A stretch of 64,000 nt of DNA from Octopus vulgaris (lineage: Eukaryota): NCBI GenBank assembly GCA_951406725.2, contig OX597817.1, positions 176,390,001-176,454,000 on the forward strand, written 5' to 3'. The position numbers and the translations under genes are program-made. Below are positions 22,771 through 58,700 of this stretch, piece after piece. Every line of letters begins with the position of its first letter. Position 1 is the stretch's first letter. The notes under the pieces are model-generated. The model made no database searches. It saw nothing but the letters and a program-made list of their open reading frames with translations, and was not told the origin of the DNA.

Positions 22771-23105
22771 AACAATGATAAATATCAAAGTGAGTTATCT
22801 ATAGTAGCGGTAACACATCGTGACGTATATTTGCTTGGAAGAGTATAAGTATTTGTGAAGGAAATTCTAATTCTCGGCGACAACTATGATTGTCACACGC
22901 TGACGAGAGGTCAATACCTCGAAACTCGAGTCCGTGTGTATCATAAGTTGAAGACGGGAAGGATGACTTCCCTTTGCAAATACTGACAGGACACAGAAAG
23001 TGTGTCTATGACCAGCTGGAGGAGTGTGTCCTCCTGGGGTTAAAACTACAGTAGCATCCACCCTTCGGGGTTAGCCATATTGAAATGGCAAATATACGTC
23101 ACGAT
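22771..23105 (+). mobile_element. ~335-bp structured non-autonomous element with a hammerhead ribozyme and an 18-bp inverted repeat
   Basis: ATCGTGACGTATATTTGC (22817-22834) is the exact reverse complement of 23088-23105. There is a ~46-bp extension left of the repeat and several internal hairpins. Flanked by TTA. Confidence 0.75.
22894..22938 (+). ncRNA. Minimal type I hammerhead ribozyme, canonical core
   Basis: CACACG-CTGACGA-GAGGT caat ACCTC-GAAA-CTCGAG-TC-CGTGTG: perfect stems I and II, palindromic stem III, GUC cleavage triplet. Confidence 0.9.
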
Positions 23106-23187
23106 TATTATTATTATTTTTAATATTATTATTATTATTATTATAATTATTATTATTATTATTATTATTATTATTATTATTATTATT

Positions 23188-25210
23188 CAGTAGTTTTATT
23201 TTTATAGAGTGCTTTCACTTCACTACCGAGCGCAACTCTGTGTGCCTTGGGTATATGCTTTGATTTGTTGTGATGCTCTGATCGTTATTGTATGGAAAGT
23301 GTTCTGCGTAGGATGTGTGCAGTGCCTAATAGTGCAATTTTCTGTATGTTATATGTGTTTGTAAGTCATGGTGCTTTTGTTATGTAGTTGTCTGAATGTT
23401 TTTTTATCATGCCTAATGCACCTACTATGTTAGGAATTCTTTCTGTTTTTAGATTTCACAATCTGGTTACCTCTATTTCCAGGTCTTTGTATTTAGAAAG
23501 TTTCTCCATTTCTTTTAGAGACACGTTGTCATCTGCCGGTATTGATACATCAATGAGAAAGCATTTTTTTTCTTCATGATCTCCTACAACTATATCTGGT
23601 CTGTTGGCCTAAATTTCTCTATTTGTGTGTATCGGCATATCCCAGATTATGGTAGCTTTCTCGTTTTCTGCGACCTTTTCTGGTGTGTGCCTATACCATC
23701 TTTTTTCTGTTGTTATTCCATAATGTTGGCATAGCTTCCAGTGTATGTGGGTTACAACTCTGTCATGTCTGTGAATATATTCCTTCTTAGCCAGGGCTGG
23801 GCAGCCACAGATAATATGATTTATTGTATCTTGTCCATCTCCACATATTCAGCAGTTACTTGTTATATTTCTTTTCATTATATGCTTTTGGTAATTTCTG
23901 GTGGGGATGCTTTGGTCTTGTGCTGCAATTAAAAATCCCTCTGTTTCTGCTTTGAGTCCTGAGCTTCTCAGCCATTGCTGGGATTTTTCTTTGTCTATTT
24001 CTTTTGCGTTTAGTTTAGTCCAGTATTTGCCATGAAGGGGCTTTTCTGCCTTCCTTTTATCATGGTTCGTTGCTGTTCTATTTTTAGTTTGGATTTCATT
24101 TGTTTTATAGTTTTCGTTGTTTCTTCATCTTCTTTTTCTTCTTCATATTTATTAGGTGGTATGATTTCTTGTTTGTATTTGTCAGCTTCCTTAAATACTG
24201 AGAACAGTGTTTTGTTTTGGTTGTGTTTTGCCGCTATTTGTATCAGTTTTCCTTCCTTCTGATGTAAATATTTTTGCAGTCCTATGGTGGTTATCTTATA
24301 GTAGTTTTCCAGCTGTATAAGGCCTCTATCAGCTTCTATACGTTGTATAAATAGTCTTTCTATGTCAGATTTTGGGTGATGCATCCTAGATCCTGTCAGT
24401 ATTTTTCTTGTTTTCCTATCTATTTTGGACAGTTCATTTCGTGTCCAGTTAAGGATATTGTAGCTGTAACTTATAACTGGGACAGCTAAAGTGTTGATAC
24501 CTATTATCTTGTTTTAGCATTGAGCTCTGTTTTTAGTATTGATCTAACTCGTATATAATATTCTTTTTTTATTTTCTCTTTCATTTGTGTGTGTTGTGTC
24601 TTATCTAGTTCATGGATTCCTAAGTATTTGTAAGTTTGGCTTTGGTCTAATTCTTTTATTTCATTGGTTTTATCTAGTGTGATGATGTTACTCTTAACTA
24701 GTTTTCCTCTTTTCAGGGTTACTTTGGCGCATTTTTCTAATCCAAATTTCATATCTATTTCTTTGGTAAGTCCATGAACTGTCTTTAATAGTGTTTCCAG
24801 CTGTTTGTCATTTGCAGCGTATAGTTTTAGGTCATCCATATATAAAAGGTGGCTGATCGTTTTGCCGTAACATTTATATCCGCATCCAGTTCTATTTAGC
24901 ATATCAGATAGAGGTGACAGTGCCAAGCAGAAAAGGAGTGGAGAGAGCGTGTCTCCCTGGAATATTCCTCTTCTAATGAGGATGTCTTTGGTTTTCATGA
25001 GTCCCTCTTTTGTTTGGAGGTGTAGGACTGTTTGCCATTAATTCATAGAGTGCTCTATGAATTTTATGATTGTTGGTGCTACTTTGTTAATGGCTAGTGT
25101 TTCGAGGATCCATGAGTGGGGAATGCTATCAAACGCCTTTTTGTAGTCAATCCAGGCCATACTGAGGCCTTTCTTCTTTCTGTGGCTGTCTTTAGTTACG
25201 GCTTTATTTT
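23188..25210 (-). mobile_element. 5'-truncated R4/Dong-like copy, family B (RT to 3' UTR), decayed
   Basis: WIDYKKAFDS, GIFQGDTLSP, YMDD and MHHPKSD in ORF pieces 25038-25200, 24504-24998 and 24010-24384; 3' end shared with the 7021 copy. Confidence 0.9.
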
Positions 25211-55638: not shown

Positions 55639-55724
55639 TTCGGCTGACGAGTACGAGCCATCTGTATTCACTGCATTTCTTGTAGCTTATTAAAGATGTC
55701 CTCGTACGAAACGATCGTACCGAG
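55639..55724 (+). ncRNA. Type I hammerhead ribozyme with enlarged loop II
   Basis: TTCGG-CTGACGA-GTACGAG (43 nt) CTCGTAC-GAAA-CGATCG-TA-CCGAG; palindromic stem III; GUA triplet. Confidence 0.85.
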
Positions 55725-58700
55725 ATTTTAATCCATTCTTGTTGCTTTTTTCCTATTTGTAATCACCCCACTTGTCGTATGGTTAACACCATATAGATTT
55801 CCGGTGCATCCTAGTTAAGGACCATATTCAAGTGAATTCTTTAGAATTCACTAGAATCTCAATTACTTAACCGTATATATATATATATATAAATATATAT
55901 ATATATATATATATATATATATAAAATTCGCTGTGGAAAGACTTTTTGAACACTCTGTATATATATATATATATATATATATATATATATATATATATAT
56001 ATATATATATATATATATATATATATATTATTAATTCACTGTGGAAAGATTTTTGAACACTCTGTGTATATATATATATATATGTATATATAAATTCACT
56101 GAGAGACTAACACTGTATATATATATATATATATATATATATATATATATATGTATAATTCATATGTATGATATATATATATGTGTGTATATATATATAT
56201 ATATGTATATATATATATATATATATATATTACTATGTATGACATGTATATATATATATATATATATATATATATATATAAGAGAGAGATGAGATGAATA
56301 TATATAGAGATATATATATGTATGTATATATATATATATATATATATATATATATATATATAATTATGTATATATACATATGTATGTATATATATATATA
56401 TAATATGTGTGATTTATGTATATATATATATATATATATATATATATATATATATATATATTATGTATATATAATATTGAACACTGTGTATAATATATAT
56501 ATATATATATATATATATAAAATTCACTGTAGAGAGACTTTTTGAACTCGGTATATAAATCCTTAAAAATGTTTTAGCCCGAAGGCCGCGGCCATGCTGG
56601 GGCACCACCGATGAATGAGCTACACTAATTTGTGAATCCACCTGTGATACGTGGCACTTGATCAACAAGGGAGTTCGATTCTGCTGCCCGCATCCGCGTC
56701 TCCTGTCGTGAGGTAGGCTCATCTGGGACTCCCAACAAGAAGAGATCCAGTTTAGTTTTAAAGAAACCCACATCCACACCATGTAAGTCTCTCAGGCATT
56801 TAGGGAGGATGTTAAAGAGCTGTGGTCCTCTGAAACCCAAGCTGTTGCAGTATCTGGACCTGTATTTTGATGGTGATGTTGGAATCCTTGGCACCATGCA
56901 GTGGCGCCCGTTCTGCGGTTGGAGTAACTTTGAATGCCAAAGTTTGGGACAAGACCCTCCAGGATTTTCCAGATGTATATCACCGCATATCTCTCCCGCC
57001 TCCGCTCTAGGGAGAAGAGGTTTAATACCTTCAGTCTTTCCCAGTAGCTGATATTTTGCATTGAGACGATTTTCTTTGTGTAGCTTCTCTGAATTGCTTC
57101 GAGTTCTGCTGTTAGTTTTATATTGTGTGGTGACCAAAGTTGGGAGCAGTAGTCCAAGCGGCTGAGGACGAATGTTTTCCATAGGACCATCAGTGTCTCC
57201 TTCTCTCTTGTTCTGAAAGTTCGGAGAATCCATCCAGCTAGCCGTCTGCATTTTATCACCAGATTAGCAATATGCATTTGGAAAGATGCATCATTGCTCA
57301 TGTCAATGCCCAGGTCACGCACTGATTTTGACTCAGGGATTGCAATTCTTCCTGGGCCAGTGTATCCAGTCTTCACGTCATTTACCTTTGTGTGCCAGTA
57401 GCGCAGGGCCTGGAACTTACCTGCATTAAACTGCATGTTGTTGTCCTCAGCCCACCTGTATATTGTGTCCAGCTCATGTTGCAGATGCGCAATATTTTCA
57501 GGGTTTTGTATTGCGTGGGAGACTTTTGTGTCATCTGCATAGCTAGCAAGGGTGGTCATCGTAGCAACTGAAGGCATGTCTGAAAGGGCCACTATGAACA
57601 TCAGTGGCCCCAAGACAGTGCCCTGTGGGACACCGCTTGTTATTTGCGTTTCCTTGGAGGTGGCTCCATTGCTCACAACTGCCTGTTTTCTGTCTTTTAG
57701 GAAGTTGTGCAGCCACTCTCCAAGTTTCCCGCCTATGCCGAGACCACGCAGTTTGTGACAGATCATACCATGGTCGACTTTATCAAAGGCTTTTGCAAAG
57801 TCGAGATATATTACATCCACATTTGAGCCATTTAGTAGCTGTTTCAACACCCAGTCATAGTGTTGCAGGAGCTGTGTTAGGCAGCCTCTACCTGGTCGAA
57901 ATCCATGCTGGGTGTCAGACAGCAAGTCATTTTCTTCAAGGAACATGATTAGTTTCTTACGGACTATTCGTTCCATGACTTTGCTGATGTGTGAGGTCAG
58001 AGAGATAGGCCTATAATTTTTAGCATCTGCTCTGCTACCTCCCTTATGGATAGGGCATATTACCCCCTCTTTCAATTTGACTGGGAGCTTACCACTTGCA
58101 AGAAAGCTCTGAAAAAGAAGCTGTAGCGGTTTTGCAAGGGCTCGTTTGCACGATTTGAGAAGGATCGCTGGGAATCCATCAGGTCCAGCAGCTGAGTTTG
58201 TGTCAATCTCATCAATGGCTAGTGTGATATCATCATCTTCGATGTTGATGTACTCAATTTTTGTCTCTTTGGCCGCAGGTAAAGTGGCAAAGAATTCTTC
58301 TGGGTTGTTTACTTGCCTGTGTCCTAGAGGTGTAGTGAACACACTTTGGAACTGTTCGTTCAGTATTTCACTTATCCTCGTGGGATTTCCTGTGAGAGAG
58401 CCATCTTTTTGGAAGAGAGGTCCTATTCTCTGGTGCACTGCTGGCTGTCTCTTTGGCAAACTTAAAGAAAGCTTTAGGGTTTGATTTTATATTTTCTATT
58501 ACCCAAGCTTCTTTATCTGCTCTCTCCTTTTCATGGGACTGATGTAGACTTTTCTCAGTTTCCATTAGCATTCTTTCGAGCCGAGACTTCTCACCACTTT
58601 TGGTGTGCTTGCTCAGGCGGTTTGCAATCCTTGTCCGTCGTCTCATAAGAATCCTCCTTTCTCTAGGGATCCTGTTTTTGTTCTTGTGTGTGCTGGCCCT

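Follow-up and report, generated by a model that had tools for sequence, protein, structure and literature searches.

The window analysed here is a 64,000-nt stretch of the Octopus vulgaris genome (assembly GCA_951406725.2, contig OX597817.1, positions 176,390,001 to 176,454,000 of the forward strand), and all positions refer to it. Three inserts with inverted arms were identified (Table 1): a non-coding insert at 22.8 kb (E1), a truncated PLE, and a palindrome at 53.6 kb (PAL). Comparisons with PMC8557442, PMC3846280, PMC11167929, PMC4209133 and PMC4067079 refer to excerpts of these papers.

Table 1. Features of the three inserts and of the satellite unit between PLE and PAL
Feature	Position	Strand	Remarks
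E1 tail: 46-nt extension on one side, prolonging the inverted arm	22771..22816	-	adjoins (TTA)n array 17627-22770
E1 inverted repeat of the final 18 nt of its body	22817..22834	-	18/18 matches
E1 body, non-coding, strongly structured, (ATT)n at end	22835..23105	+	fold and flank
E1 predicted type I hammerhead, from core to putative cut (GUC); stem III loop short and palindromic	22900..22932	+	descriptor and fold z -2.56
PLE tail, 72 nt, on short inverted arm	47784..47855	-	
PLE predicted tail hairpin: 4-bp stem, UU bulge, upper stem	47822..47845	-	covariance models from relatives
PLE 3' region copied in inverted, 5'-truncated form; contains hammerhead 47914-47876	47856..49450	-	
PLE 5'-truncated ORF, two frames, frameshift near 50160	49450..50789	+	homologues, alignment
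PLE 3' non-coding region, microsatellite-rich; tail-less end continues into (TA)n	50790..53458	+	
PLE right arm, with hammerhead 53400-53438	51867-53458	+	
(TA)n-spaced satellite unit between PLE and PAL	53459..53585	.	same orientation as units left of PLE and right of PAL
PAL arm without tail; its hammerhead copy (about 53695-53621) has a core substitution	53586..54652	-	
PAL head-to-head junction: 2-nt spacer and 44-nt exact tandem duplication, tailed side only	54651..54738	+	
PAL tailed arm, intact hammerhead motif 55644-55719 (GUA)	54699..55756	+	fold z -3.09
PAL tail, 117 nt, structured, (TA)n at end	55757..55873	+	fold z -5.0

The first-pass annotation had described inverted repeats of 18 bp, 1.6 kb and 1.07 kb with about 46, 73 and 118 extra bp outside one arm, and these figures agree with ours to within a nucleotide. 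The second E1 arm lies at 23088-23105; the longest inverted repeat in 300 dinucleotide shuffles averaged 7.6 and reached at most 13, against the 18 observed. The E1 body folds with z -5.6 relative to 30 mononucleotide shuffles. The PLE arms, with approximate boundaries, differ by 10 substitutions in 1572 columns and 8 indels, and the PAL arms by 12 substitutions in 1049 columns and 5 indels. Repeat-rich assemblies are prone to errors at palindromes, and mirrored reads might in principle have produced the long ones; we give this hardly any credence, given the differences between the arms, the tails without a mirror image and the same layout in unrelated assemblies. Within the window, no second copy of the E1, PAL or PLE family and no other copy of the E1 tail was observed.

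For the PLE ORF, 166 homologues were found (best E 1e-72). Proteins about 700 aa long among them span both frames, one match being named GIY-YIG endonuclease, and the second frame shows 38% identity to the homologue P0006 (E 5e-45); Pfam gave no RT or GIY-YIG match in either frame. The domain order is RT from motif A, thumb, Cys-rich linker with three Cys in register and the first Cys replaced, and GIY-YIG-type endonuclease. A PLE-type RT together with a C-terminal GIY-YIG in one ORF, although truncated and frameshifted, identifies an EN+ PLE, and searching with 120 PLE proteins (tblastn) gave matches only at 49.4-50.8 kb. Given its Cys-rich, Zn-finger-like linker between RT and EN, the element may belong to the Neptune clade. 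Such a linker is common to Neptune and Nematis, and EN+ PLEs of this type share the order of RT, linker and C-terminal GIY-YIG endonuclease (PMC8557442).

The element also carries an inverted terminal repeat with a one-sided tail and a type I hammerhead in the repeat. EN+ PLEs, too, are truncated 5' and bear an inverted copy at that end, with the same one-sided tail and hammerhead, and likewise insert in microsatellites with no readable TSD (PMC8557442). The earlier remark that PLE insertions can have inverted pLTRs and a short tail thus matches a published signature, an inverted 5'-truncated copy with an optional tail of 30-40 bp at either end being typical (PMC8557442, PMC3846280). Unlike these EN+ PLEs, the window element has a 72-nt tail rather than one of 30-40 nt and a 2.7-kb microsatellite-rich 3' region (PMC8557442). 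Its tail is non-coding, whereas that of Poseidon_Ac (PAc) and Pen2a lies inside the ORF; reading the tails by eye, we saw no ORF start of the Poseidon/Penelope kind within them.

A type I hammerhead descriptor found five motifs in the window: one in E1, one in each PLE arm, one in the tailed PAL arm, and one at 62702-62639 on the minus strand, outside the three inserts. In 200 shuffles of the 34,098 unmasked bases the mean was 0.01. An Rfam scan at E<=1 returned no hammerhead or other ribozyme family, its 115 matches all being miRNA, snoRNA or scaRNA models below gathering scores, mostly in microsatellites and palindromes; the predicted ribozymes are therefore called from the descriptor and folds. 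The minimum-energy structure of the PLE motif is not a hammerhead (z -0.83). One relative (locus L007) shares the stem III type of this motif and the U.U where stem II starts. E1 and PAL have a different stem III type from that of PLE. It had been proposed that the hammerhead points toward the outer end in each insert, and a type I motif with this orientation is indeed present in all three. The picture is less uniform in detail: E1 has a single motif, 173 nt from its tail-less end, with none in the tailed arm, and the left PAL copy carries, besides its core substitution, an altered base after the cut site.

Each insert, extension included, is embedded in one AT microsatellite, and the satellite units around PLE and PAL are a shared target array. 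Because the satellite and microsatellite registers run on across the inserts, the extensions are not unrelated flanking DNA, a possibility raised together with the initial reading; because the flanks retain their orientation on both sides, no flank was copied. The short ends share 2, 3 and at least 6 nt with the target repeat, overlaps expected at 18%, 3% and 0.4% of positions, whereas no target-template homology at initiation was found in vitro (PMC11167929). Such tails are not treated in the excerpted microsatellite-context papers PMC13282606 and PMC12602865, nor in PMC5737381. A 2-nt AT in E1 and TA in PAL can be read at both arm ends, indistinguishable from the microsatellite, and would suit MITE or foldback DNA transposons with symmetric TIRs lying beside unrelated short DNA. 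The termini of E1 and PAL are asymmetric unless the extension is set aside, and that reading would need an unrelated island of 46 or 117 nt exactly at one arm, twice; five TAA arrays that were checked hold only two islands, of 13-14 nt. Together with hammerheads facing outward at PLE-like positions and PLE tails on equivalent non-coding palindromes of locus L005, this makes a MITE or foldback origin of E1 and PAL highly improbable.

Fifteen loci with PLE relatives were compared, 10 of which contain hammerheads. Their 3' ends fall into a short and a long class about 60 nt apart, non-coding hammerhead palindromes included, with the caveat that automatic short-end calls may extend 4-5 nt into the target repeat (L006, L010). 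These fixed ends, seen in the relatives, are of the kind that the first-pass annotation had proposed looking for in copies of each family, a fixed break between arm and extension. Three of the five inverted structures with both outer ends readable consist of arms plus a one-sided tail of about 58-67 nt, namely two non-coding palindromes in L005 and one ORF copy in L006. In L006 it is the long copy that bears the tail, in L005 family B the short arm, and two separate family B loci have the same short end, +51 to +55 from the cut. In L009 and L011 the tail is found immediately upstream of the ORF start. Two 3' end classes downstream of the hammerhead, a nearby stem-loop and AT-rich targets are also found with PAc in vitro, an element of another clade whose stem-loop is AC-rich and inside the ORF (PMC11167929).

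A covarying bulged hairpin is common to the tails of these distant relatives. In an alignment that was itself fitted to the structure, 80 of 80 cells are paired, 3 of 6 pairs are changed on both sides, and the covariation score was reached by none of 500 shuffles. MAFFT and RNAalifold misaligned the 5' strand and returned no structure, so the model was seeded from four equal-length relatives with a hand-given structure. Covariance models built only from relatives, in a training set chosen by a pattern written after the window tail was known, rank the PLE tail as the top window match (roughly calibrated E of 0.071 and 0.19; within the tail, p=0.004). The match is modest: in a pair-aware scan the PLE hairpin is fifth of 19 window matches of at least 10 bits, and by a sequence-only matrix the tail scores 7.7 bits, outside the top 10. 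Its first pair is A-U where relatives have G-C. The hairpin begins 10 nt past the short end and stops 43 nt before the long end, against 33-42 nt in seven relatives. Since the relatives' tails share the hairpin and the relatives-only models place the PLE tail first, the tail is element-derived. The hairpin may position the PLE protein; it is absent from E1 and PAL.

A single template-switch or snap-back event type had been suggested for all three inserts. One PLE-type integration signature does fit them all, but plain snap-back as the sole mechanism is ruled out by tail position: the short arm of E1 and PLE bears the tail, and the long copy, the would-be self-template, has none. Two separately primed cDNAs, or later trimming, are therefore needed. 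We regard it as on balance probable that E1, PLE and PAL each arose in a single insertion by a PLE RT/GIY-YIG protein priming from both nicked strands. The protein would nick both strands of the AT microsatellite, and both nicks would prime reverse transcription downstream of the hammerhead, using two fixed start sites, a distal and a proximal one, so that two primers would be used. The two cDNAs would extend toward the RNA 5' end and stop, and end joining would link them head to head. Tail length (46, 72 or 117 nt) would be set by the spacing of the start sites, and arm length (18 bp, 1.07 kb or 1.6 kb) by the shorter cDNA; the three scales would therefore be only different stopping points. 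A purified PLE protein, for which a dimer is predicted, cuts and extends both strands and starts at two sites on either side of the tail (PMC11167929).

In PAL and in L005 family A the arms meet within 2-5 nt, which suits fold-back at least as well. Microhomology at the central PLE junction is 2-4 nt, depending on a lost Asp codon. Flanking DNA is copied into the inverted arm in two structures, L005 family C and the hammerhead element at 62.0-63.5 kb, whose arm continues past (TA)n to take in 145 nt of LINE flank; priming from both strands leaves this unexplained. In a version of the suggested snap-back with resolution added, PLE machinery might instead have acted by fold-back, the distal-site cDNA snapping back to copy itself and the endonuclease trimming one arm at the proximal site. 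Besides the LINE flank past (TA)n in the 62.0-63.5 kb element, short junction spacers and small local duplications (PAL, L005 family A) agree with this, self-priming was proposed from junction palindromes (PMC3846280), and tail resolution by the endonuclease has been suggested (PMC8557442). We nevertheless consider fold-back rather unlikely here: the target-attached arm of E1 and PLE would have to shed its tail, with the copy retaining it and taking up no flank, the 44-nt PAL duplication has no mirror in the other arm, and both ends are RT start sites in vitro (PMC11167929). Priming from both strands, which we prefer, has a counterpart in LINE-1. In LINE-1 twin priming, two nicked strands prime on the element RNA and the cDNAs become linked head to head. 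Because annealing of the second primer takes place far upstream, the product is an inversion without duplication. With both starts near the 3' end, as proposed for PLEs, inverted repeats would result instead.

E1 taken alone resembles HINE/DINE-1 elements (non-autonomous Helentrons), which have asymmetric inverted repeats near the 5' end and 38-60 bp from the 3' end (PMC4067079). Read on the minus strand, the E1 repeats lie 0 and 46 nt from the ends, the latter within the published range, a small hairpin overlaps the terminal repeat, and TTT stands at the far end. Its repeat is 18 bp long against 11-15 published (PMC4067079), and the 5' boundary lacks TT, whereas at least two T are expected at both boundaries. 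Furthermore, the 3' palindrome amounts to an AT stem of just 4 bp, a length that 67% of shuffles attain (DNA fold z +0.55), there is no internal microsatellite, and the opposite strand carries an intact type I hammerhead in PLE-like orientation. A Helentron-associated element with a passenger hammerhead, unrelated to PLEs, is accordingly quite improbable.

Priming by PLE machinery remains our reading of E1 and PAL, and the proposal that architecture ties them to it holds as far as architecture goes. None of 10 pairwise alignments among E1, PAL, PLE and the 62-kb element beat shuffles (best p=0.059), so common ancestry was rejected; E1 and PAL show no significant similarity to PLE or to each other. 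Their 3' ends have no homology to the window PLE or the 15 relative loci. Lacking similarity and the tail hairpin, and having another stem III type, E1 and PAL do not derive from this PLE. More probably they represent other families moved by PLEs, as non-autonomous or truncated members, tied by architecture only. Like non-LTR retrozymes and non-autonomous PLE derivatives (PMC7229834; bioRxiv 10.64898/2026.07.22.740005), they are non-coding and structured, with a type I hammerhead and a short palindromic stem III, and E1 falls within the size range of 170-400 nt. Their PLE-type ends in a microsatellite also suit non-autonomous PLE derivatives. They are inverted-plus-tail inserts rather than the head-to-tail tandems of retrozymes, no direct repeat of the E1 or PAL unit being found; the word "inverted" is absent from PMC7229834.

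The overall architecture and the integration idea are largely in print (PMC8557442, PMC3846280, PMC11167929, PMC4209133, bioRxiv 10.64898/2026.07.22.740005), and opposed hammerhead pairs were reported in PMC4209133. The new part is the longer tails and the tail hairpin. How the inverted repeats and one-sided tails of PLEs come about is described as unresolved to date in excerpts of PMC8557442 and PMC11167929, and inverted insertions are not dealt with for PAc in those of the latter. The window and relatives provide figures that can be put to the test: ends of two classes, tails on one arm or the other, and a hairpin that is a cis-acting candidate and keeps a fixed distance from both ends. PLE mobilisation of non-coding hammerhead repeats has so far been argued from co-occurrence and terminal-repeat similarity (bioRxiv 10.64898/2026.07.22.740005), and an arm-plus-tail footprint would be direct insertion-level evidence for it. 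We tentatively suggest that PLEs might insert by twin target-primed reverse transcription from a protein dimer, the tail hairpin of this lineage perhaps serving as a ruler that places one start site a few nt ahead of it and the other about 35-43 nt behind, and that lineage-specific tail length and fold could be a barcode assigning non-coding hammerhead elements such as E1 and PAL to autonomous partners.

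The inverted arm with a one-sided extension (the tail), which the first-pass annotation had described in the non-coding insert at 22.8 kb (E1), the Penelope-like element (PLE) and the palindrome at 53.6 kb (PAL), was confirmed by measuring arms and tails in each. The arms of E1 form a perfect 18-bp inverted repeat, against a longest repeat of at most 13 in shuffles, with 46 nt beyond the left arm. The ~1.6-kb PLE arms show 10 substitutions in 1572 columns and 8 indels, with 72 nt beyond the left arm, while the 1.07-kb PAL arms show 12 substitutions in 1049 columns and 5 indels, with 117 nt beyond the right arm, and are separated by a 2-nt spacer plus a 44-nt duplication. 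In the window, a descriptor of the type I hammerhead matched five times (mean in shuffles, 0.01): once in E1, twice in the PLE, once in PAL, whose second copy has a core substitution, and once at 62.7 kb. The end offsets differ among the three inserts, and therefore no spacing is common to all of them.

Features of the window and paired hairpins in relatives; ends without/with tail (short/long) are in nt from the predicted hammerhead cut
Feature	Position	Short/long end	Remarks
E1	22771..23105	+173/+219	arms 22817-22834 / 23088-23105
PLE	47784..53458	+20/+92	coding part 49450-50789
PLE tail hairpin	47845-47822		top covariance-model match
PAL	53586..55873	+37/+154	
62-kb element	62033-63495		hammerhead 62702-62639, minus strand; partial tandem X-Y-X, period 547, plus inverted arm
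Satellite	39144-62030		units ~32 nt with (TA)n between; hosts PLE, PAL, DNA transposon, LINEs
TAA array	30728-33512		higher-order period ~990 bp
DNA transposon	39272-40889		in satellite; TIRs ~50 bp; ORF with DDE_Tnp_IS1595 domain
LINE copies, RT and zinc-binding	2571-8156, 23188-25203, 25267-30776		minus strand; adjoin (TAA)n arrays
LINE 5' end	30640-30776		ribozyme-like by eye; fold at shuffle level (z -0.49)
LINE copies, AP-endonuclease/RT	16010-17568, 42420-45681, 56520-61849		one with upstream CCCH zinc-finger ORF, 59832-61055
Small (TA)n-flanked family	40977-41449, 51182-51380		second member within PLE 3' region; shared ends (88/104 and 36/38 matches), different middles
Paired tail hairpins	L002 837-920, L003 2603-2704, L007 9887-9974, L009 6-95		~60-70 nt apart, near ORF start; internal tandem junctions

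The window is AT-rich, eukaryote-type DNA (29% GC), with short tandem repeats covering 29,114 of 64,000 bases, and holds nested LINEs, one DNA transposon and small inserts within (TAA)n arrays and within a satellite with (TA)n spacers. Along the satellite the order is unit end, (TA)17, PLE and tail, (TA)23, unit, (TA)25, PAL and tail, (TA)n, unit, with a single unit orientation throughout, and TTA-phase repeats flank E1 on both sides. None of the three tails recurs in the window, and the five TAA arrays checked contained only two islands, of 13-14 nt. The tails are part of the inserts, not neighbouring DNA. Among the other residents, the DNA transposon is presumably Merlin-like, and we take the minus-strand LINE copies to be R4/Dong-like. 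The small (TA)n-flanked pair lacks a hammerhead, inverted arm or tail.

The PLE coding part is 5'-truncated and frameshifted, and begins within RT motif A; 166 homologues were found, the best at 53% identity (E 1e-72). In its second frame, the alignment to the homologue P0006 covers the Cys-rich linker and the endonuclease. No second coding remnant was found in the masked window by tblastn with 120 homologues. The linker resembles the Neptune/Nematis type described in PMC8557442.

A scan of genome contigs yielded 15 loci (L001-L015) that belong to the lineage of the window PLE. These are animal-type PLEs with (TA)n flanks on contigs labelled bacterial MAGs, which are likely animal DNA from host contamination; L007 lies close to the end of a 491-kb, possibly chimeric contig. 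Hammerheads were identified in 10 of the 15 loci, most with a CAG/CTG-type stem III like the window PLE. Both ends were readable in five inverted structures, a count that leaves aside segments in L001, L007, L011, L012 and L014. Three of the five, the non-coding palindromes A and B of L005 and the ORF copy of L006, have one short and one long end: the first arm ends between +51 and +60, the second at ~+116 to +118, followed by microsatellite. Ends at +39 and +98 occur in family C. The relatives show two end classes, and the short end is common to two separate loci of family B. The other two structures are L005 C, with two short ends and ~200 nt of flank in common, and L008, with a 53-nt arm of tail sequence alone.

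The relatives' tails share a predicted hairpin (4-bp stem, pyrimidine bulge, upper stem) that begins 1-6 nt past the short end and stops 33-42 nt before the long end. In a structure-fitted alignment of 14 distinct, related sequences, 80 of 80 cells were paired and 3 of 6 pairs covaried. Two covariance models, trained on relatives only with the window PLE left out, placed their top window match within the PLE tail, with 15.9 bits and E 0.071 in one (runner-up 1.2) and 16.1 bits and E 0.19 in the other (runner-up 2.3). This candidate lies 10 nt from the short end and 43 nt from the long one and has A-U for a G-C pair invariant in relatives. Our pair-aware scan ranked it 5th of 19 window matches (p=0.004 within the tail), and a sequence-only scan of the window missed it; the signal in the window PLE is modest. 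The hairpin directly precedes the ORF start in tandem relatives, so the tail is likely the 5' UTR of the next unit. This hairpin was not found in the literature searched, supplements and most subscription papers lying outside the search.

The architecture common to the three inserts is the already known signature of PLE insertion, and hammerhead repeats have previously been proposed to derive from PLEs (bioRxiv 10.64898/2026.07.22.740005). New here are the tails of 46-117 nt, the predicted hairpin, conserved in this PLE lineage at fixed distances from both ends, and the use of tail position as an argument for twin priming over plain snap-back.

The E1 and PAL hammerheads have a 1-2-bp stem III and a palindromic loop, the dimer-forming type of PMC4209133 and PMC7229834. 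Because of this different stem III, the lack of any hairpin match in E1 or PAL, and the lack of alignments better than shuffles to the PLE, to the 62-kb element or between the two, E1 and PAL are not derivatives of the window PLE. They are most likely other PLE-moved families, either truncated 3' regions or non-autonomous elements; their proposed tie to PLE machinery lies in shared architecture. PLE tails do occur on PAL-like objects, the non-coding palindromes of L005. A Helentron-type element fits E1 in part: its repeat lies 46 nt from one end, the geometry given in PMC4067079, but E1 passed neither the palindrome nor the TT test.

A single template-switch or snap-back mechanism had been proposed for all three inserts. 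One PLE-type signature fits all three, but plain snap-back cannot leave a tail on the short arm, where it lies in E1 and the PLE, both with a tail-less long copy; since a folded-back strand copies only its own sequence, such a tail calls for a second cDNA or for trimming afterwards. Twin priming, a mode familiar from LINE-1, would supply the second cDNA. A purified PLE protein, modelled as a dimer, cuts and extends both strands and starts at two sites flanking the tail (PMC11167929). We infer that both nicks would prime, each from either start site, so that a tail could form on either arm. Tails are indeed seen on the short arm (E1, PLE, L005 B) and on the long copy (L006), as would follow if either site is usable at each nick. 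The stopping point of the shorter cDNA would set arm length, and two cDNAs reaching the same RNA end would give a near-perfect palindrome (PAL, L005 A). The overlap between short ends and target repeat amounts to 2, 3 and at least 6 nt, suggesting that priming at these ends was by annealing.

Fold-back with endonuclease trimming (PMC3846280, PMC8557442) is a serious rival to twin priming. The 62-kb element, within a 5'-inverted LINE, has the look of a genuine fold-back with run-through and differs in signature from the three inserts: its arm extends across (TA)n and includes 145 nt copied from the LINE flank. Of 6 diagnostic sites, 4 agree between its third X and its first, and a similar copied flank of ~200 nt was observed in L005 C.
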